In this document: in pieces, positions 667-10,440 of the stretch | Layout of the letters: each line of letters starts with the position of its first letter | Numbering within the stretch: position 1 is the first letter of the stretch | Source of the DNA: an uncultured Myxococcales bacterium | GTDB lineage: Bacteria; Myxococcota; UBA4151 | NCBI GenBank assembly: GCA_964013405.1 | Contig: CAXGWI010000128.1 | Location: forward strand, 1 to 10,440 | Reading direction: 5' to 3' | DNA: 10,440 bases | The notes under the pieces: generated by a model | The model's database searches: none | The model's input: the letters and a program-made list of their open reading frames with translations, nothing else | What the model was told of the DNA's origin: nothing | Position numbers and translations under genes: made by a program

Positions 667-1116
667 ATGGAAGTGAATATCCGGCTGGCGGAGTCGGCGG
701 GGGGCGACCCATCGTTCATGCCCGTCTACGCAAGTGGTCAAGCCGCGGGCGCAGACCTTCGGGCGGCCGTTGCTGAGACCGTGACCTTGGCCCCCGGCGA
801 CCGACTGCTGATTCCAACGGGAATCCATATGGCCTTACCACCGGGATTTGAGGGCCAGGTCCGCAGTCGGTCCGGTTTGGCCCTCCACCATGGGCTCTAT
901 CTACCCAACGCACCGGGAACGATCGATTCGGATTACCGAGGTGAAATCGGCGTCATTCTGCAAAATGGTGGTGACCATCCGGTTCAGATTGAACGGGGCG
1001 AGCGGATTGCTCAGTTGATTATCGCACCGGTGTTTCAGGCGGACTTCGTGCCCAGTGATCACTTGGCTGGCACCGGCCGGGGAGCGGGTGGTTTCGGAAG
1101 TACAGGTCGGGCATGA
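667..1116 (+). CDS. dut: Trimeric dUTP diphosphatase (dUTPase), 149 aa
   Basis: All five trimeric dUTPase motifs are present: AGADL, RSRSGLA, GTIDSDYRGEI, ERIAQL and RGAGGFGSTG. Confidence 0.97.
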   Translation: MEVNIRLAESAGGDPSFMPVYASGQAAGADLRAAVAETVTLAPGDRLLIPTGIHMALPPGFEGQVRSRSGLALHHGLYLPNAPGTIDSDYRGEIGVILQNGGDHPVQIERGERIAQLIIAPVFQADFVPSDHLAGTGRGAGGFGSTGRA

Positions 1117-3278
1117 ATCACCCCCTCGACACCCTGTTGCCCACGTCGCGGCGGATCGCAGATCGCTATGAGGTGATCCGCCCCTTGGGTGTCGGCGCAT
1201 TGGGTGTCAGCTACCTGTGTCGGGACCAAGACCTCCAGGAGTTGGTCTGCTTAAAACTCGCCTACCGCCATATGTTGATCGGCCGCCGAGATCGGCGTGC
1301 GTTCGATCAATGGCTGCGGTCCATGCGCACGGCGAATTCGCCACGGTTGGCCGCCTTACAGCGGAGTGGCAGTGATGCCGAGGTCGGGACGTTCTTCGTG
1401 TCGAGCGTTGTCGAAGGTACGCCCTTAGCGAAGGTCGTTGCGGAAGCCGACAGATCCTTCCTGGCTTCAGAGGTCCGTGAACTTCTCGCGGGAATTCAGC
1501 GGGGGCTGAACGATCTTGGTGAGTTGGGCCCCCACGGCGTCCTTCACCTGAACAATATTCTGCTGACCGATGGGGATCCAGTGCTCACCGATGCCGGCAG
1601 CTATTTGAGTGTGCCAAGTCGCCTTTTTGTCGACGCCCACCGGCGTCAGGGGACCCATATCTGGTTGGCACCGGAAGTGATGCGGGAGCGCCAGGATTTA
1701 GACGGCCGGACCGACATCTATTCTGTTTGCGCCATCGCTGCTCATCTTTTGACGGGTCGGCCGCCGGGTTTACAGCAGCGCAAGGAACTCGAGACCTTGC
1801 ATCCCGCACTGCAGGCGGCCTTGCGAGCGGGCCTCACCGATACGGCTGAGGATCGGGTCGCCTCCTTGCACGCATTGGAAGCCGCACTCGATACCGCAAT
1901 CCAGACCGAGCCAGATGCAGAAGAGTTCACCGAGCGGACGGAGCGGTCTGAGCTGAGTATTCGCCAGGAGGACTTGGTCGATATCTACGAGGTGAGCGAG
2001 GAGCCAGCGGCTGGACAAGCCCAACCCACGACCACCGAATCGGAGGTGTCGACAAGGAACGAGGCCCCCTCGACGGTGGAAGAGACGGGTATCGAATCCG
2101 TGACGGACCGATCCCCCATGGATGAAGAGGAAGTGTCTCTGAGCCATGGCGTGTTGCGGTCCATGCCGGAAGGGCCAGCCCAAATGCCCCGAGTTCAGCG
2201 CTCACTCACAGCACTGCAGTGGGTTCTTTTGGCTGTGATTGGCCTGGGCGCGCTGGTTGCCAGCTATCTCATTTTTCAGGGTCTCCTGACGCGGGGGCCA
2301 ACGGATCCTGCCGGGACCCATCGGACCGTTGCAAAGAGTCCCCAGCATGAGGGCGACAACCTGGAGTTGCCTGGCCCTAGTCCGGACCAGAACGTGATCA
2401 GGGCGCCTTCCAGTCTCACCAAACCGGACGCAGGTCCCTCGGCTCGCCCGGCCTTGGCGAGGCCTCTGCGTGATGCTGGTATCGCCCACCGTGTGATTCG
2501 GGTCGATGGGGGGGGCGGCACAAATCTGGAAGTTCTCGCGGAGCAGGCCCTGGAGAAAGTCAGCGGAGAGGAAGGCTTGGAGGGGCTCGAGTCACCACCA
2601 CCGCCAGCCTTGGAGATTCGCCCAGCCCCGGAACCTGCTACTCCCACACCGCCAGCCGCCAAAGCCCAAGAGCCCATCGCGGCGCCCCAGAAAAAAGTGG
2701 GGGGGCGGGCCATTTGCAGCCGAGGGATGGCCCTGATTCCTGGGGGGCCGTTTTCGGCTGGCTCCAATGTGTCGGCCGCTGTGCGAAGTTCCGGCGAGCG
2801 GCAACCGACTCAAGTCGCTGTGGGGGATTTCTGCATGGATCGCTACGAGTACCCCAATTATTTGCGAAGCCCCCCCCGAGGAAATTTCGGCGCGTTCCAG
2901 GCCAAGGCCATGTGCGAGGCGAAGGGGAAGCGTTTGTGTGCGGAAGACGAGTGGGAAAAGGCATGCAAAGGGCCGAGGGGGCATAGCTATGCCTACGGTC
3001 CGGGTTACGTGCCCGGTCGATGCAATACGGTGGATGAAGGCCATGGGAGTGCTGTCGCGCCCTTGAAGTATCCCAAGTGCCGAGCGGGCTATCGAACATT
3101 CGCCATGACCGGTAATCTCGCCGAGTGGGTTCAGGCCAAATCAGGCTTTGCCCTCAAAGGTGGCTCCTATGAAGAAGGACAGTCCTCGGCCCGGTGTGCT
3201 GCGAGAGCGCCGGCTCCAGCCAGTCGTCGACGGGCAGAATACGGGGTGCGTTGTTGTGCGGATCCGAGTTACGAGTAG
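1113..3278 (+). CDS. Membrane-anchored Ser/Thr kinase-like (probable pseudokinase) / FGE-sulfatase (SUMF1-like) domain fusion protein, 721 aa
   Basis: N-terminal Hanks fold: RYEVIRPLGVGALGV, VCLK, NILL, LAPE, DIYS...LTGRPP. Then an acidic linker, one TM helix (LQWVLLAVIGLGALVASYLIF, about 2214-2276) and a Pro-rich spacer. C-terminal FGE-type motifs from about 2712: GMALIPGGPF, FCMDRYEYPN, GKRLCAEDEWEKAC, MTGNLAEW, KGGSY, GVRCC. ATGA overlap with the dut stop. Confidence 0.88.
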   Translation: MNHPLDTLLPTSRRIADRYEVIRPLGVGALGVSYLCRDQDLQELVCLKLAYRHMLIGRRDRRAFDQWLRSMRTANSPRLAALQRSGSDAEVGTFFVSSVVEGTPLAKVVAEADRSFLASEVRELLAGIQRGLNDLGELGPHGVLHLNNILLTDGDPVLTDAGSYLSVPSRLFVDAHRRQGTHIWLAPEVMRERQDLDGRTDIYSVCAIAAHLLTGRPPGLQQRKELETLHPALQAALRAGLTDTAEDRVASLHALEAALDTAIQTEPDAEEFTERTERSELSIRQEDLVDIYEVSEEPAAGQAQPTTTESEVSTRNEAPSTVEETGIESVTDRSPMDEEEVSLSHGVLRSMPEGPAQMPRVQRSLTALQWVLLAVIGLGALVASYLIFQGLLTRGPTDPAGTHRTVAKSPQHEGDNLELPGPSPDQNVIRAPSSLTKPDAGPSARPALARPLRDAGIAHRVIRVDGGGGTNLEVLAEQALEKVSGEEGLEGLESPPPPALEIRPAPEPATPTPPAAKAQEPIAAPQKKVGGRAICSRGMALIPGGPFSAGSNVSAAVRSSGERQPTQVAVGDFCMDRYEYPNYLRSPPRGNFGAFQAKAMCEAKGKRLCAEDEWEKACKGPRGHSYAYGPGYVPGRCNTVDEGHGSAVAPLKYPKCRAGYRTFAMTGNLAEWVQAKSGFALKGGSYEEGQSSARCAARAPAPASRRRAEYGVRCCADPSYE

Positions 3279-3281
3279 GTC

Positions 3282-4058
3282 ATGCTAGAGTTATGCGTTA
3301 GTCTGGTTTTGGTCTTGGATCCGGCGGCTCCGTTCGCCGCAGCAGCGACCGCAGCCGCAAAATCCCGTCCCTGCACGAAGGTGCTGACCATCACCGGGAG
3401 TGCCGAAGCGGACCGGGCCCAGGTCGGTGGCGTGAAAGAGCAAGCTGTCCTCGTCGCTTACGGGCCGGCTGCAGCCGTGGCGGTCGTGACCCGCTGGCCC
3501 GACCGGTCGGTGACTCTTGGCGGACTTGGACCGGCTAATTCGGTCCTTTTTGAAGCCCCACACCGGCGCGTCCTGCCCCTATCCCCAGAGGGGCATGTGG
3601 CAATCGCACTTGCGAATCGACTCTTACCCTCTCGAAAAGTTTGGTGCGTGCCTGTCTCTCCGGACATGGCCCGAGATCGGGTGGAGCGTAGCCGTTCGGC
3701 CCTGCGCCAGGCGGGCATGAGTCTCGTGCCCTACCGGGATGCGCCGCCCGCTGGCTGTGAGGGGCTCGTCGCCTGGTACGAGGGCCCCGCGACGACGGCT
3801 GATGGCTTTCAGACGCTGCTGCAGCAGGCCCATCGCTTGAAGTTGCCCGTGCTCGCTTTTTCGCCAGAACTCCTGGGACAAGGTACGGAGTTGGCTGTGG
3901 GCGTCCAGTTGGGCCTGTACTTGGGCCATCTTCTCGACGGGGGGTCGGTCCAGGAGGATTGGCTCCTGTGGGTTGATCCGGTCGGGGCCGCTCGCAAGGG
4001 GCTGGCTTGGCCAAAAACCTGGCCAAACGTACCTGTGCGGATTCAACCGCCGGAGTAG
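3282..4058 (+). CDS. Exported protein, divergent ABC_sub_bind-like (type I periplasmic binding protein fold), 258 aa
   Basis: Hydrophobic/Ala-rich N-terminus. Segments VLVAYGPAAA, LANRLLPSRKVWCVPVSP and AHRLKLPVLAFSPELLGQGTELAV resemble ABC_sub_bind (PF04392-type) patterns as I recall them (llP..k.igv.y.p; kiPv......v..Gal.a). Starts 3 nt after the upstream stop. Confidence 0.6.
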   Translation: MLELCVSLVLVLDPAAPFAAAATAAAKSRPCTKVLTITGSAEADRAQVGGVKEQAVLVAYGPAAAVAVVTRWPDRSVTLGGLGPANSVLFEAPHRRVLPLSPEGHVAIALANRLLPSRKVWCVPVSPDMARDRVERSRSALRQAGMSLVPYRDAPPAGCEGLVAWYEGPATTADGFQTLLQQAHRLKLPVLAFSPELLGQGTELAVGVQLGLYLGHLLDGGSVQEDWLLWVDPVGAARKGLAWPKTWPNVPVRIQPPE

Positions 4059-4062
4059 ATTG

Positions 4063-4734
4063 ATGGGTCGTATCTGCGTTCTTGGCGCTGCCATCTTCAT
4101 GGCTGCACCGGCTCAAGCCCACGCAGGCTTGGACGTCATGGGTGTGCACCTGGGGCAGAAGAAGCGGACTGCGTTACGGTGGGCCCGTAAGAAAACAGGC
4201 TGTCGGCCCATCAATCGCAAGTTGCGGAGCTTCTACGTCGCCGACGACCACAGCGTGGTGAGTCGTGGGCGGAAAGACCGCTCCGTGGCCGTGATGAACT
4301 GTCGGGATAAGCACTGGCGAGAGGCGAAGATTCGCGAATACCATTTCGTCCGGGGCCGCCTGGCTCGTATCGTGGTTCATCTGGACCCGGGCCTCGGTAG
4401 CAACCGGAGTGCCGGCGAGCCCTGGGTACCAAAGTATCATGAGATTAAGGCCGTCTTGACCGGCGTGCTTGGCGAGCCGGATGAGGTGGTCGAGCACGTG
4501 CCGAAGAGCTTTGCGGGTGACCCGGTCCGGGCCCTCGAGCAGCGGCGTGGAGGCTACTGGAGCCGCTGGGCTGAGCGATCCCGTCAGCGGGTGGATATGG
4601 GTTTGCGGTTAAGTGGAGACCGTAAGCAGCCGGGACGGGTGCTCTTTTACGTCGATATTCGGGGACGCAGTCAGATCAAGTCCCAGAAGAAGCGCCGGCG
4701 CAACCGATTGCGGCCTCGTTATAATCCCTATTGA
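4063..4734 (+). CDS. Highly basic exported hypothetical protein, 223 aa (start reassigned from 3973 to ATG 4063)
   Basis: GGAG at 4052-4055 lies 7 nt before ATG 4063, just after the upstream stop at 4058. This start yields a classic Sec signal peptide, MGRICVLGAAIFMAAPAQAHA|G. Confidence 0.75.
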   Translation: MGRICVLGAAIFMAAPAQAHAGLDVMGVHLGQKKRTALRWARKKTGCRPINRKLRSFYVADDHSVVSRGRKDRSVAVMNCRDKHWREAKIREYHFVRGRLARIVVHLDPGLGSNRSAGEPWVPKYHEIKAVLTGVLGEPDEVVEHVPKSFAGDPVRALEQRRGGYWSRWAERSRQRVDMGLRLSGDRKQPGRVLFYVDIRGRSQIKSQKKRRRNRLRPRYNPY

Positions 4735-5930
4735 GATCGCCTGATGCCTAGGGATTGGTGAAATCCAGGCCAGCTGACATCCACCGCATCGGCACTATCT
4801 AACTGGAGCCCGCCTGGGACGGTGGCTGCCAGGGCGCAGAGCGCCATGTGGATCCGATGATCGCCGTAGCAGGGGATCTCGGCGCTTTGGGCCTGTCCGC
4901 CGACCACTGTGAGCTCGTCTCCGGTCACATGGACCTCAAGGCCACATCTGTGGAGCGCCTCAGCCATCACCGCGAGGCGGTCGCTCTCTTTATGGCGGAT
5001 GCCAGGACTGCATTGGAGTCGCGTGGGACCTGGGCTGAGACTGGCGAGCACGGCCATCGGTGGCAGCAGGTCCGGTTGAGCCCTTAGATCCAAGTACGGA
5101 ACGGCCAATCGCTCACCGGGATGTATCGAGAGTCCATCGTCATGCCAACGCACGCTGGCGCCAAACTGCTCGAGAAACTGAGGGAGGGCCCGATCCGATT
5201 GTCGGGAGTGGCGTTGGAGGTTCGCTAGGCGCAGGGGTTGTCCCATGGCGATGGAGAAAGCCCCAGCCAAACCGGCTGCCGACCAGTCGCCCTCGATGGG
5301 GTAAAGCCCTCCTTGGGCCGTCTGGTTGCCAGGGATCTGGAAGCCATCGCTGGTTTTCTCGATCATCAAACCGAAATGGGCCGCCGCCTGCTGGGTCAAC
5401 TCGACATAACCCTGGGACGGCACCTCGCCGAGCAGCTGAATCCGGCTGTCTCCGGTGGCAAAGGGCAGGGCGAGCAGGAGGCTGGAAAGGAATTGGCTGG
5501 AGAGCTCCGCAGCGACGGAAAACAATCCGGGCTGGAGTGGTCCACGGATGCTGATGGGTAAGTGGTCGTCTCGGCTCTCGATCCAGACACCGGCTGCTTC
5601 GAGACTCCTGAGCAAGGAGGCATTCGTGCGTCGGGAGAGGGAAGCATCACCGACAAAATGGGTCGTTTCACCCAACAGCGCGGCCTGGCCTAAGAGGAAA
5701 CGCAGCGTCGTGCCTGAATTGCCACAGTCGATCGTGATCCCGTCGCCCAGGGCCGCCATGCCACGGTGGGTGGCTTCGGTATCCGCACAGTTCAAAAGCC
5801 CATCGAGCACGGGCGGATCAGGGCAGTGATGGGAAAGGATGAGGGCCCGGTGACTCAGGGACTTGCTACCGGGGACAGCCAGTGAGTCGGGTAGCTTCGA
5901 GGGAGCCTCGATACGCTGCAAAAGGCTCAT
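4728..5930 (-). CDS. aroA: 3-phosphoshikimate 1-carboxyvinyltransferase (EPSP synthase), 400 aa
   Basis: Motifs VPGSKSLSHRAL, DCGNSGTTLRF, SSQFLSSLLL, IEGDWSAA, PDL, RHKESDR, DHRI and SWPGF. ATGA overlap with the upstream transporter gene. Confidence 0.96.
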   Translation of the reverse strand: MSLLQRIEAPSKLPDSLAVPGSKSLSHRALILSHHCPDPPVLDGLLNCADTEATHRGMAALGDGITIDCGNSGTTLRFLLGQAALLGETTHFVGDASLSRRTNASLLRSLEAAGVWIESRDDHLPISIRGPLQPGLFSVAAELSSQFLSSLLLALPFATGDSRIQLLGEVPSQGYVELTQQAAAHFGLMIEKTSDGFQIPGNQTAQGGLYPIEGDWSAAGLAGAFSIAMGQPLRLANLQRHSRQSDRALPQFLEQFGASVRWHDDGLSIHPGERLAVPYLDLRAQPDLLPPMAVLASLSPGPTRLQCSPGIRHKESDRLAVMAEALHRCGLEVHVTGDELTVVGGQAQSAEIPCYGDHRIHMALCALAATVPGGLQLDSADAVDVSWPGFHQSLGIRRSQ

Positions 5931-6985
5931 AGTGACTCGACATGGACCGAGTCCCCTTCCGATGTGGAGTGGATCGCGCCAGGAAGCCTTCCTGCAAGAA
6001 TCTCGGCGGCCGGTCGCGTCGTCTCAAAGCGCGCGAGGATGATGCCCATAATCGCCGTCATCGGTGCGGCCATCAGCATGCCGACGGGACCCCAGATCAT
6101 GCCCCAAAAGATCAAAGCGAGGAGAATGCTCAGGGGGTGAAGGTCGAGGCCATCGCCCATCAGTTTCGGCTCGATGACGTTGCCGATCGTGAACTGGATC
6201 GATCCAGGAATCACGATGGCTGCGGCCACCATCAGTCCGCTCTCTAACTGAATCATCGCAATGGGTAGGGGCAGGAGGGTCGCGATGATGGAGCCAACGC
6301 TTGGAATGAAGTTCAGGAGGAAGGCCATAAAGCCGAAGACCATGGCGAGGTCGAGGCCAAAGAGTGCGAGGGTGCTGCCGACCAGGATGCCGGTGACTGC
6401 AGAGGTGATCACCTTGGTCGCCAGGTAGCGACGAATCTTCCGATCCATCTCCCCCCAAAGCCCCGAACGAACCTCTAGCGGCTGCCTTCCCAGAATCATG
6501 AAGACCGCAAACAACGCCACCAAGACCGAGGTGGTCAGGAAGTTCATGACACCGCCTACGGCGTCTTGCAGCAAAGGCAGGACAGGCAGTTCACGAATGC
6601 GATCGACGAAGTCCTTTTGACCGAGGTCGATGTTCCACCGTGTGAGCAGGCCGAGGACCCGATCGACCAATTGCAGTCCTTTTTCCTTGAAGGTGTCCAC
6701 GTTCTCCATCAGCCCGCCGATGGAGGTGATGAGGAGCAGCGTGAGCAAGGTGAGCAAGGATGCGATGACGAGAAAGGCTGCGAACAAAGCCACCCAACGA
6801 GGTGCCTTCAGGCCCAACTGCAGCCCATCGACTAAAGGGGCCACCAAATGGGTGAGAAACAGGGCGAGCATGAAAGGGACCATGACCGGCCGCGTCCAGT
6901 AGAGGGCGAAGGCCAGGCAGGTGGAAGCAATCACCAACAAGGAGACTGTCGTCAGGTTGCCTTGTTCGATCTGTCGTCCGCCCAT
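5927..6985 (-). CDS. AI-2E family (PerM/TqsA-like) transporter, 352 aa
   Basis: Multiple hydrophobic helices with family motifs LLNFIPSVG and NVIEPKLMGDGLDLHPLSILLALIFWGMIWGPVGMLMAAPMT. Typical length for the family. Confidence 0.93.
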   Translation of the reverse strand: MGGRQIEQGNLTTVSLLVIASTCLAFALYWTRPVMVPFMLALFLTHLVAPLVDGLQLGLKAPRWVALFAAFLVIASLLTLLTLLLITSIGGLMENVDTFKEKGLQLVDRVLGLLTRWNIDLGQKDFVDRIRELPVLPLLQDAVGGVMNFLTTSVLVALFAVFMILGRQPLEVRSGLWGEMDRKIRRYLATKVITSAVTGILVGSTLALFGLDLAMVFGFMAFLLNFIPSVGSIIATLLPLPIAMIQLESGLMVAAAIVIPGSIQFTIGNVIEPKLMGDGLDLHPLSILLALIFWGMIWGPVGMLMAAPMTAIMGIILARFETTRPAAEILAGRLPGAIHSTSEGDSVHVESL

Positions 6986-7009: not shown

Positions 7010-10000
7010 TTAGTCCGAAACCCCCAATGCAACAGGTCCCGTCGCTTCGCCGCTTCCGGGCTCATAGTAGCTGTCGATCGTCGAGGCCGGCGCATTGCCA
7101 TTCATGGGGTACCGGGCTCGCAGGCGGAAGCTCAGCGATTGTGGGGTCTGGGGAGGGAGTCCCATGAGGTAGAAGACGATTTTGCGAGGGTCTGCCTCCC
7201 AGCGTGCAGCCCGTCGCTCGGCCACCAGGGCGTCGAGATCTTCCGGCATGATATCGAAGCCAGGGGGACGGCCGATGCTCACGATCACTTGATCCATGGG
7301 GCCCTCGGCCAGGTTGGTCGCTGTTGCTCGCACCCGAGTCGTCTCCCCAGGGGCCAAGTCCGTTCGGTCGTAAGCCACGTCCAAACTCAGGGTTTGGTTC
7401 GGATTCGGGACGGGGCGCCGATCCCAGGGGCGATAGTGGGTCCCAACCACTTGGTACATCAGGCTGCCCTCACCACGGATCCCAACATTCACCACGTTTT
7501 CACCGGTCACCAAGTGCTCACTCAGATCGGTGGTGAGGTGGACATCACCGAAGTCCTCGTTGCGAAAGTCATAGCGCTGAACGGCCCGGCCATTGTGGGT
7601 GATGACGATCTCGGCATCGATGCTGCGAGTCGCTTCCATCGCCGCGGTCAGCAGGGCTCGAAGGCTGTTCACGGTGGCCTGGGTGGAGTACCAATTCCCG
7701 AAGGCATCTTTCGTGGCCGCGAGGAAGGCCAAACCTTCGGAGACGAGGCCACTACTGGTCCCGGCCTTGATGAAGGCGTAGACGACGAGGCCAGTCATCT
7801 CCACCTCGCCAGGCGTGCCACCTCCTCGCGCACCGGTCCACGAGCCCCCTTCGAAACTCCACTTCTTCTGCCCTTCTCCAGGGGTCTCTGCGGCCGTCGC
7901 CAGCTGGCTCAGCAAGCCCGGGAGGGCTGGGTCCGCAGGATCCCGGGCCAATAAGGCGTTGGCCATGAGGGCGATGGCGTAGCGGTCGCGGGAGGCCTCC
8001 TCAATGTTGGCGACCAGGAAATCTCTTCCCCGCCGCGTCGCGTCTGGAGCGCCACCATCTTTGGCAAGTCCCCATGTGATGAAGGCTGTCGAGCGATAGG
8101 GGCTCGTACCCAAGGCCTCGTTGCCTGAATGTAGGGCATCACCGGCGGCCCAAGAGCCATCACCGGCCTGTTGCTCGACGAGCCAAGTCCGGTGGCGGTC
8201 TGCGACTCGCTCATCGGTCTCGATGAGCCCATCAAGGGCTGCGAACTGCATGAGGGCAATGGCTGTAAGAATGCGGTTGCCAGGATCATTATTGCCCCAC
8301 CAGTTGTAGCCACCTGTTGGGCTTTCGAAGGTCAAAATACGTTGGTAGCCGGTGGCCAAAAGTTCCATGGCCCGGGCCCGGAGATCCGGATCGATCTCTC
8401 CCGTGGCTTCCAGGTATTGCAGGGCAAGGATGTTGGGCCACGCGGTGGATGTGGTCTGCTCGAAGCAGCCCGAGGGAACCCGTAGCATCGATTCCATCCC
8501 CTCCACCGCGTTGGTGGCGTAGCCAGGATAGAGTTTGATCATCAACTCGTTGGCGTCGGGCACTGCATCCACCGGGAAAAGGGTGGTGATGTTGTTGTCT
8601 GGACCCTCTGCCCGCCCACCGACGGTTTGTTCGACAGCATCGCCATTGGGCGCAATGCGGAGGCTTCGCTGGACTGCATCAGCCTCGTCGCCGGCCTGGC
8701 CCTGAATCGTGAGTTGGGCTGTCCCCACCGACGTCGCGGCGATGGTGTAGTAGACGCCCCGGACCTCACCGGCCCCTAAGCGGAGGGTCTGCCGGGCCTG
8801 GGAGCGTAACTCCAGGGGACCATCGATCTCCAGTTGAAGGTCAACCTCCTGGGCCTCTTCTAGGTAGTTGTAGACCACAACCGGTAGGCCGATTTCATCG
8901 CCGACCGTGAGCTGGGCCGGAAGGTCGATATCCACGAAGAAGGGTTGGAAGACCTCAAGTCCCTGGGCACTGGAGCCGAGGGCGCCCTGCGCGCTGTTGG
9001 CTTGGGCCCCGACGCGCCAGGTGGTGATGCTGTCGGCCAGGGGGATCTCCACTTCCGCCCGTCCCTGCTCATCAACGATGACGCTTGGAGCCGTAAACAG
9101 TGTCTCGGGGAACCAACTGCGAACTTGGATTCCCCCAGCCCCGCCAGGCTCGGCAACACCGGTGTCTTCTGGACCATTCGGGTCGGCACCTCCGCCGCCA
9201 CCGCCACCACCGGCTTGGGGAGGGCCGGCCCCTTCCTCATCTTCAAGAAAGCCTCTGGCGAGGGGGCGAATCCAACCGGAGACATCATCGAGGGTTTCAA
9301 AAACTTCGTCGGGACCGGCCGTCGTTAGTCGGATGTGCCAACCGTTGCCGGTATGGCGATAGGGTTGCCCGAAGGGGTCGCTTAATTGAGCGACGAGTCG
9401 GAGAGCCTCAGCCTCCAGTTGGTCCCAATCAAGCTCGCCGGAATTAAGTCGTTCCTGGAGATCGCGACCGATGCGCTCACCCTCCTTCTGGATGCGCAAT
9501 TGGAGCGCAACCCGGACTTCGTGAAGCGCCAGTCGTTCTGAGTCCAGTTGAACCAAAGCGAGGGGCCCTAAGGCGGCGGGAAAGGCCAGACGAGCGAGGG
9601 CCTCTCGCCGACCATCATCGGACTCGGAGAGGACCTCGCCAGGCCGCACCGGGCCGGTCGCTGCATCGGCATCTCCCGAAAGGTCGAAATGGGTCTCAAG
9701 GCGGCCGGGTGCGGCATCACCGAGGGCGAAGACAGCTTCGTCGACGGCCGTCAGACCGACGTTCGCCTGCACCGGCTGTCCTAGGTGGTCAGCCACTTGA
9801 ATCCGCAGGTTCGCCCGCTCACCGGGACGGTATTGGGCTTGGTCAAAGCGCAGGCCCACGTCCAGGGCGGCTAAGGCTTGCACATAAACCATGGCTTGCC
9901 CTGTCACGAGGGCCTCATCGCCCCGTCGAGCCATGGCGCTCAAGGTCAAGCCGCCATGAAAGCGCTCGTCGAGGGGAACCACCAGTTGGGCCTGCCCATC

Positions 10001-10440
10001 TTCGAGCCGCCCCTGGACGGTGGCGAGGGTGCTGCCAGCTTTGATCACGTCGAGGAAGACATCGCCCGATGCCTCCGGGACGATGGCCGTGACCTCGAGG
10101 GCCCCAGGCGCTCGCAGGACGTGGCGGTTGGGCCGGAGGAGAAAACGATCCTGGCTCGCCAGAGGGAGGGTGACATTTTGTTCGAAGGCCGGCGCACCGT
10201 CGGGCTCGACGGTCATCGTGATGCCCTGGCCTGCCGCCTCCTGGGGCAGATCGAAATGGCCCGAGCCCGTGGCATCGGTATTGATCCGCAGCCCAGAAAG
10301 GCCCGGCCCAGCGAGTGTGATCGGCAGGGCCAGCGGTGCGCCGCCCGGGTCACGGGCAAGCACTTGGATCCGATTGTTGGTGCCGGGAATGACGGCGCCA
10401 TTCTCCGGGACGAGGTGAACGAGGGCGGCGCCAGCCGCAA
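7010..10440 (-). CDS. Alpha-2-macroglobulin / thioester-containing protein (partial, 5' end outside window; more than 1140 aa)
   Basis: The frame is open beyond GTG 10363 to the window edge (AAGAALVHLVPENGAVIPGTNNRIQV...). Motifs: YRPGE, AVDEAVFAL, VRSWFPETL, DSITTW, VFQPFFVDIDLP, thioester GCFEQ (CFEQ at 8456-8467), GYQRIL, VEMTG, STQATV..L.AL, and a C-terminal receptor-binding/MG8 domain (PPGF...SYYEP). Confidence 0.95.
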   Translation of the reverse strand, partial: AAGAALVHLVPENGAVIPGTNNRIQVLARDPGGAPLALPITLAGPGLSGLRINTDATGSGHFDLPQEAAGQGITMTVEPDGAPAFEQNVTLPLASQDRFLLRPNRHVLRAPGALEVTAIVPEASGDVFLDVIKAGSTLATVQGRLEDGQAQLVVPLDERFHGGLTLSAMARRGDEALVTGQAMVYVQALAALDVGLRFDQAQYRPGERANLRIQVADHLGQPVQANVGLTAVDEAVFALGDAAPGRLETHFDLSGDADAATGPVRPGEVLSESDDGRREALARLAFPAALGPLALVQLDSERLALHEVRVALQLRIQKEGERIGRDLQERLNSGELDWDQLEAEALRLVAQLSDPFGQPYRHTGNGWHIRLTTAGPDEVFETLDDVSGWIRPLARGFLEDEEGAGPPQAGGGGGGGGADPNGPEDTGVAEPGGAGGIQVRSWFPETLFTAPSVIVDEQGRAEVEIPLADSITTWRVGAQANSAQGALGSSAQGLEVFQPFFVDIDLPAQLTVGDEIGLPVVVYNYLEEAQEVDLQLEIDGPLELRSQARQTLRLGAGEVRGVYYTIAATSVGTAQLTIQGQAGDEADAVQRSLRIAPNGDAVEQTVGGRAEGPDNNITTLFPVDAVPDANELMIKLYPGYATNAVEGMESMLRVPSGCFEQTTSTAWPNILALQYLEATGEIDPDLRARAMELLATGYQRILTFESPTGGYNWWGNNDPGNRILTAIALMQFAALDGLIETDERVADRHRTWLVEQQAGDGSWAAGDALHSGNEALGTSPYRSTAFITWGLAKDGGAPDATRRGRDFLVANIEEASRDRYAIALMANALLARDPADPALPGLLSQLATAAETPGEGQKKWSFEGGSWTGARGGGTPGEVEMTGLVVYAFIKAGTSSGLVSEGLAFLAATKDAFGNWYSTQATVNSLRALLTAAMEATRSIDAEIVITHNGRAVQRYDFRNEDFGDVHLTTDLSEHLVTGENVVNVGIRGEGSLMYQVVGTHYRPWDRRPVPNPNQTLSLDVAYDRTDLAPGETTRVRATATNLAEGPMDQVIVSIGRPPGFDIMPEDLDALVAERRAARWEADPRKIVFYLMGLPPQTPQSLSFRLRARYPMNGNAPASTIDSYYEPGSGEATGPVALGVSD

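Follow-up and report, generated by a model that had tools for sequence, protein, structure and literature searches.

We analysed a 10,440-nucleotide contig of an uncultured Myxococcales bacterium (G000:C128, accession CAXGWI010000128.1; this whole stretch is called the window below). Its last 3.4 kb carry, on the minus strand, the 3' part of a gene for a thioester protein of the alpha-2-macroglobulin (A2M) family. Within this protein, an initial annotation had noticed a module resembling GspG, the major pseudopilin of type II secretion systems (T2SS), at the position where complement C3 carries its anaphylatoxin. Here we describe this inserted domain, called the head below, and weigh its possible functions.

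The macroglobulin and its inserted domain

The frame (7010-10438, minus strand) is open at its 5' end and encodes 1142 amino acids (aa). The 5' part of the gene lies on contig C200 of the same genome, which overlaps the end of the window by 29 nucleotides and brings the protein to about 1,600 aa in total. By eye, we assigned an N-terminal lipoprotein-type signal to the start of the C200 part, and the macroglobulin is likely lipid-anchored. Its closest named relative comes from a Myxococcales bacterium (75% identity). From the N-terminal to the C-terminal side, the features of the frame are as follows.

7010..10438, minus: thioester alpha-2-macroglobulin-family gene, 3' part (1142 aa; open reading frame (ORF) and Pfam)
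9722..9745, minus: N-terminal MG6 half, final residues (VDEAVFAL, aa 232-239; PF07703 ends at aa 239; model)
9560..9721, minus: linker (LNK), two short predicted helices, aa 240-293 (model; named LNK by position, after an excerpt of PMC9156758)
9266..9559, minus: GspG-head-like domain, aa 294-391, with long helix, short helix, DPFGQPY, beta-hairpin and calcium-type loop
9443..9541, minus: long predicted helix, aa 300-332, the C-terminal part of which aligns with the C-terminal part of pilin helix 1
9359..9379, minus: DPFGQPY motif (GspG DPWG.Y), aa 354-360
9284..9322, minus: predicted calcium loop, aa 373-385 (sequence match to PulG/OutG)
9125..9265, minus: bait-like region, Gly/Ala/Pro/acidic, low-confidence, aa 392-438 (model)
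9098..9124, minus: VRSWFPETL, aa 439-447, the alpha'NT plug (R440, F443) and the start of the C-terminal MG6 half
8456..8470, minus: thioester motif GCFEQ, aa 657-661
8129..8131, minus: H770, in line with the CD109 and A2ML1 His (Asn in human A2M) and predicted to act as the acyl-imidazole catalyst
7652..8509, minus: thioester domain PF07678, aa 644-929 (Pfam, E 2.2e-33)
7055..7288, minus: C-terminal MG8/receptor-binding domain PF07677, aa 1051-1128 (Pfam)

Pfam matched A2M_BRD (aa 131-239), A2M (452-536), the thioester domain (644-929) and the receptor-binding domain (1051-1128) in the frame; it gave no C345C domain, as the protein stops 14 residues past the MG8 match. The marks of the A2M superfamily are all present, namely CxEQ in the thioester domain (TED), a split MG6 with LNK and bait followed by CUB, TED and MG8, and an R-x-x-F plug. 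An AlphaFold2 model of the 1142-aa frame, built on an 11-row alignment, reached a mean predicted local distance difference test (pLDDT) of 76 and a predicted template modelling score (pTM) of 0.44, and its best structural matches were native CD109 (8s3o) and A2ML1 (7q1y). The thioester domain is likewise closest to human CD109 (E 8.5e-25) and A2ML1, the Salmonella and E. coli A2M proteins reaching only about 6e-4. Judged by sequence and model, the host is a CD109/A2ML1-like thioester macroglobulin. A His at the catalytic position permits reaction with hydroxyls (excerpt of PMC9156758). Contigs of two marine metatranscriptomes overlap small parts of the gene, one of them at 9411-9568, at a depth of 2-3 that is no proof of transcription. 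The genome also encodes a second macroglobulin on contig C84 (L151:2549-6589:-), with a short bait, an intact CxEQ and no head, and this is the likelier ECAM-type member of the genome.

Rereading the frame placed the motifs where they had first been reported: AVDEAVFAL runs to aa 239 (position 9722), DPFGQPY starts at 9379, and the W of DDVSGW ends at 9272. The domain itself is slightly larger than the 9272..9538 first proposed and spans 9266-9559. Its location between the MG6 halves also stands, at the place equivalent to the C3 anaphylatoxin; it is not, however, the whole MG6 insertion. This insertion has three parts, the linker (aa 240-293, 54 residues), the folded domain (aa 294-391) and a 47-residue Gly-rich stretch with pLDDT below 50 in the AlphaFold2 model, after which VRSWFPETL follows. 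According to the excerpt of PMC9156758, LNK and bait form one insert within MG6, and complement has the anaphylatoxin instead of the bait. The positional analogy to C3 is right because the order of domains matches that layout, LNK-[anaphylatoxin or bait]-alpha'NT. The difference from C3 is that this protein has a folded domain as well as a bait. The head is thus no bait replacement, since a bait is kept downstream of it, and an artefact or chimera was ruled out by the conservation of the domain, in frame, across phyla.

Modelled alone with 84 homologues, the domain gave a mean pLDDT of 88.6 and consists of a long helix (36 residues), a short helix and three short strands. The insert contains neither a prepilin motif (G/FTLIE) nor a hydrophobic N-terminal helix, and the domain is internal to the protein. 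There is no Cys in the insert, and no anaphylatoxin match to Pfam in the 1142-aa frame. A strict motif pattern matched the 3.9-Mb genome once, at this locus; the same pattern missed the genome's own GspG.

Kinship with GspG and the predicted calcium site

We then asked how the head relates to GspG. Searched alone against Pfam, the insert of the window gave no family at E ≤ 1 and none at 0.1, PF08334 included; a profile made from the heads of 24 prepilin GspG proteins gave it -0.9 bits, and it has lost the YP motif of GspG. Since this copy misses PF08334, the link to GspG is transitive, through relatives. We aligned the inserts of 84 of the 103 domain-hit loci, after removal of duplicates, near-identical copies and some that were partial or long. 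PF08334 matched 44 of the 84 at E ≤ 0.1 (best 9.4e-10), and any other family matched at most 2. Against PDB sequences, the five best matches of the family profile were all GspG (E 1.9e-6 to 3.7e-4), in the C-terminal part only. An hhalign comparison of the family with the genome's own GspG gave 97.8% over 77 columns, helix included, and 5/6 full-length relatives, hand-picked as most GspG-like, scored above the PF08334 cut-off.

Part of the likeness lies in the calcium loop, which alone would not prove kinship because a similar loop recurs in SdrD-B adhesins: in the giant repeat adhesins P0013, P0015, P0027, P0049 and P0113, a GspG-like calcium loop is found in 10-22 repeats. Fold searches did not reach significance. 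In Foldseek, ranks 1-10 for the domain model were all GspG, with E 0.21-2.9, TM ≤ 0.46 and none at E ≤ 0.001; a VIA-wide fold search gave a best Z of 5.5, with PilV (Z 5.2) and GspK (Z 4.6) amid unrelated helical matches and GspG outside the top 50; and an ESM Atlas feature search returned no usable match. Moreover, half-profiles of the part preceding DPWG did not retrieve GspG when made from the whole family or from the clade of the window's protein.

A second clade was more informative. We made a profile of 34 inserts that the host-protein tree assigns to a different clade, leaving out the clade of the window's protein. Among the 34,109 frames of the genome, only GspG (1.5e-13) and the insert described here (3.8e-7) were significant. 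The pre-DPWG part of this profile alone still ranked GspG first of the 34,109 frames (E 0.018; 2.3e-5 with DPWG.Y). In the reverse test, the best match of a GspG profile fell inside the slot between linker and bait in 96/101 head-bearing proteins and in 0/22 others, just 31 reaching 10 bits. Convergence on a generic calcium loop by a domain unrelated to GspG, which the adhesin repeats, the fold searches and the failed half-profiles would fit, is hardly credible beside the second-clade results, the 77-column alignment and the relatives that pass the Pfam cut-off. Homology of the insert family to the GspG head is thus well supported by these profile comparisons, with the copy in the window a diverged member.

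In PulG and OutG, the side-chain calcium ligands are D117, S/T122, D125 and possibly D124, the site governs stability, and loss of calcium unfolds PulG (excerpt of PMC13081927). D377, T382, D384 and D385 of the head correspond to D117, S/T122, D124 and D125 with identical spacing, in agreement with the earlier proposal of a GspG-type calcium-binding Asp loop. Across the 84 aligned inserts, D377 is kept in 84, T/S382 in 83, D384 in 84 and D385 in 83, counts that lean high because the rows came from a motif-seeded profile. D354 of DPFGQPY and G375 are kept in 84/84. Conservation is limited to the fold and the calcium positions, most of the long helix being variable. The fold of the domain is predicted to form around calcium.

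Bait, plug and the contents of the slot

To follow the head through the family, species genomes were scanned with MG6/MG7 peptide patterns, and the best 80 of 549 relatives, ranked by likeness to the window's protein, were kept. Among these 80, 75 have a head, 3 begin inside or after the slot and 2 carry membrane helices in it, so the head is present in 75/77 scorable loci. Both the similarity to GspG and the conservation of the motif in homologous macroglobulins, on which the first proposal depended, were thus found. The relatives belong to Myxococcota, Planctomycetota, Armatimonadota, Hydrogenedentota, WOR-3, Acidobacteriota and other phyla. Within Myxococcota, 198/401 genomes have a macroglobulin match, and at least 33 have one with a head. 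When 1.84 billion representatives were searched with the profile, 8619 matched at E ≤ 0.001, true pilins included; among the best 150 of these, 117 are macroglobulins, 112 of them with at least two heads, a ranking by score that favours repeats. The slot is more varied in 19 hand-picked weaker matches from the phylum: the head is absent from 16 (one of which has a TonB-C-like domain), membrane helices occur in 2, and a single one bears a head. The slot is therefore an exchangeable cassette that holds nothing, membrane helices, a TonB-C-like domain, or one to four heads.

Individual members illustrate this variety. Hydrophobic predicted membrane helices take the place of the pilin head in L028, L029, L100 and L108, and L149:752-5485:+ has a TonB-C-like domain instead (PF03544, E 0.002). 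In L140:943-5895:+, L141:355-5574:- and P0014, an N-terminal anti-sigma-type zinc finger precedes a membrane helix (PF13490, E 6e-12, in P0014; H-x3-C-x2-C by eye in L140 and L141, with no Pfam match in L140), and in L140 and L141 the bait slot, too, holds membrane helices. The sequences of these zinc-finger macroglobulins suggest a membrane-spanning protease sensor tied to sigma-factor control. Outside macroglobulins, P0020, P0034, P0035, P0057 and P0047 are small proteins with a signal-like N-terminus, three or four tandem GspG heads and no prepilin motif. Several relatives (L074, L107, L113, L116-L118, L126, P0008 and P0011) stop directly ahead of the thioester motif, and their thioester domain lies in the following frame; two matches from the phylum have a single in-frame TGA. 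Readthrough or a naturally split gene may account for this.

A FastTree phylogeny of 147 rows of the MG6-TED core, 25 of them representative matches drawn at random, needs five changes in head presence; the head-less forms make up one group, and the membrane-helix forms need three changes. Both kinds are nested among head-bearing proteins in this weakly rooted tree. Among the animal-like macroglobulins of bacteria, the form with a head may be the ancestral one, a suggestion only, because the root is one very long branch.

The elements around the head are kept as well. A bait of 36-194 aa (median 61; Gly 20%, Ala 15%, Pro 8%) follows the head in 94/94 single-head loci. The bait at 9125-9265 is acidic and Gly-rich, with basic residues at 2/48, like those of its own clade; other clades have basic, Met/Ala-rich baits, which may reflect different target proteases. 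R440 and F443 are invariant in 11/11 rows, and the R-x-x-F plug is kept in 221/222 rows, whether head-bearing (199/200), head-less (16/16) or with membrane helices (6/6). A2M is triggered when the segment following the bait, with its conserved R732 and F735, retracts (Harwood et al., excerpt of PMC9352918). Furin cuts before C3a, and this is how C3a is released; a polybasic site near the junction of linker and head was found in just 4/94 single-head loci, so the head likely stays attached. Finally, a catalytic-position His occurs in only 27/102 single-head rows (a gappy column). Head and hydroxyl chemistry therefore do not travel together, and a co-variation of head and catalytic His was ruled out.

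Consequently, we hypothesize that the head is a permanently attached, calcium-stabilised spacer between linker and bait, presenting the bait to proteases, a reading we hold with moderate confidence. We favour it because the bait is kept, the plug is kept whatever fills the slot, the release site is scarce and the slot is interchangeable; it is favoured too because the His is independent of the head, there is no link to the T2SS, and tandem heads form small secreted proteins. In our model, and following the family, a protease would cut the Gly-rich bait, the plug would retract through the MG2-MG3-LNK channel, and the thioester domain would then swing out and form a covalent bond with the protease or with a surface close by, through amines and, with H770, hydroxyls. 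For this protein in particular, the head would stay on the N-terminal fragment, calcium would, as in PulG/OutG, do no more than staple its fold, and the position and reach of the bait would be set by the head, which would be neither trigger nor pilus subunit.

Several points weigh against such a spacer. The full model lacks MG1-MG3 and has the low pTM given above, so the place of the head relative to the ring is not set by it. A mere spacer need not persist in nearly all scorable loci across many phyla, nor be triplicated elsewhere, and this wide retention and triplication would fit a binding role equally. Processing at a non-polybasic site may occur at the low-confidence junction, aa 292-303. 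In addition, the lipoprotein signal was judged by eye, and trapping, calcium binding and the anchor are predictions.

One of the functions first proposed was a folded trigger or wedge, analogous to C3a. In this case the head would pack on MG3/MG8 or block the plug channel, and the protein would be native only while the head is calcium-folded, making it a calcium-gated thioester protein. The location shared with the C3 anaphylatoxin stands, and the long helix, the compact and confident fold, the nearly invariant calcium ligands and the unfolding of PulG on calcium loss would all suit this design. The kept bait and the scarce, non-conserved N-terminal release site weaken it, however, as do the varied slot contents and the retention of thioester and plug in head-less and membrane-helix relatives. 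Three or four tandem heads also suit a single wedge poorly, and Harwood et al. argue against MG3/MG8 contacts of the cleavable part as the trigger (excerpt of PMC9352918). On balance, we consider the wedge unlikely.

A targeting module is similarly doubtful. Here binding of the head to a surface, a glycan, a protease or a partner in the envelope would aim the thioester, making the protein opsonin-like (as C3 or TEP1) rather than a general trap. Tandem heads in most of the best-scoring macroglobulins, under a ranking that favours repeats, and in small secreted proteins resemble the pattern of an avidity module; H770 is present in the window's protein; and the variable helix-loop may correspond roughly to a region that sets the specificity of GspG (excerpt of PMC13081927). 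The column counts show no conserved surface patch, though, the His is missing from most single-head rows, and no conserved neighbour gene was found around the 80 loci with a crude ORF caller.

We consider it quite unlikely, as a broader reading, that this is a bacterial complement-like protein, lipid-anchored and His-catalysed, in which, separately from animals, the anaphylatoxin slot took up a calcium-binding pilin head to serve as a calcium-dependent safety catch or for targeting, and which covalently tags prey, predator or phage surfaces.

A pilin mimic or decoy, the other function first proposed, is very unlikely. The head would cap or bind the pseudopilus or type IV pili, lure phages or predators, or serve as a T2SS export tag, and the genome does hold a full T2SS operon, on another contig (C6); a GspG-family gene occurs in 61/61 phylum genomes searched, and the homology to GspG spans the entire head in one clade. 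The loci themselves speak against it. Neighbour clustering used a crude ORF caller, which recovered 73 macroglobulin frames from the 80 loci, and because it often chose antisense frames, the T2SS test was repeated by tblastn. With the T2SS proteins of the genome's own operon, the 80 loci (1.06 Mb, flanks of at most 7 kb, many shorter) gave no match except through the insert, that is, a T2SS gene in 0/80, and a prepilin motif occurs in 3/80. The insert also lacks the prepilin N-terminus and the YP motif and scores below zero against GspG heads, and tandem heads occur in small secreted proteins that are not pilins. In a tree of heads, the 84 inserts group apart from the 24 GspG heads (90 columns, a short alignment with long branches), which fits an old divergence and not the tracking of host pilins.

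Known systems, neighbouring genes and meaning

CD109 (8s3o, 9fx2) and A2ML1 (7q1y) share with the window's protein the MG-ring/LNK/bait/CUB/TED/MG8 order, CxEQ, the catalytic-position His, R-x-x-F and the lack of C345C. In contrast, the protein described here is bacterial, has a lipoprotein-type signal and additional domains at its N-terminus, and carries a GspG-like folded domain of 98 residues after LNK and ahead of the bait. C3, C4 and C5 also have a folded domain between LNK and a cleavable stretch, and a catalytic-position His, which is not specific to complement; unlike them, this protein has a putative pilin-head fold instead of a disulfide-linked anaphylatoxin, no furin-type site before the head, a long disordered bait and no C345C. 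By sequence and model, the head shares with GspG (PulG 1t92/5o2y, EHEC GspG 3g20, EpsG 3fu1/3gn9 and OutG; PF08334) the helix, short helix, DPWG.Y, two-strand hairpin and calcium-loop spacing. It differs in that it is internal to a large protein outside a gsp operon, lacks Glu5, a hydrophobic N-terminal helix and a prepilin cleavage site, and has, in the window's copy, lost YP. E. coli ECAM and Salmonella A2M (4u48, 4ziq, 5a42) have an envelope-anchored thioester protease-trap design (excerpt of PMC4498604), which the protein described here would share; it is distant in sequence, has a folded domain before the bait and has no adjoining pbp1C, none being found next to the gene in the window or on C200.

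The rest of the window contains the following genes, which look like housekeeping neighbours.

667-1116: dUTPase (Pfam)
1113-3278, plus: Ser/Thr kinase-like domain, membrane segment and FGE-sulfatase domain (Pfam)
3282-4058: ABC substrate-binding protein, weak (Pfam)
4066-4734: exported protein, no family named
4728-5930: EPSP synthase (Pfam)
5927-6985: AI-2E transporter (Pfam)

By eye, the HRD catalytic loop of the kinase-like protein departs from the usual form, and it may be a pseudokinase. The gene order from the kinase to the macroglobulin is retained in L032.

A literature search found no paper on a macroglobulin combined with T2SSG or a pseudopilin, in agreement with the initial annotation, which knew of no functional description of this combination; subscription journals and supplements lay outside the search. 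The architecture is a real, widespread and apparently undescribed variant of a known family, already visible to Pfam in some relatives.

These results indicate that complement is not alone in having a folded domain at the anaphylatoxin position, and that the animal-like thioester proteins of a large, unstudied branch in bacteria use this slot as an exchangeable cassette. The reuse of the GspG head as a general extracellular module calls for caution in taking PF08334 matches for secretion systems. The variety of the cassette also provides a natural test set for the trigger mechanism, wedge versus plug-in-channel, and for the reason why complement has a folded domain; as cultured Sorangium has members of the family (L061, L081, L083, L087 and L097), it is experimentally testable.

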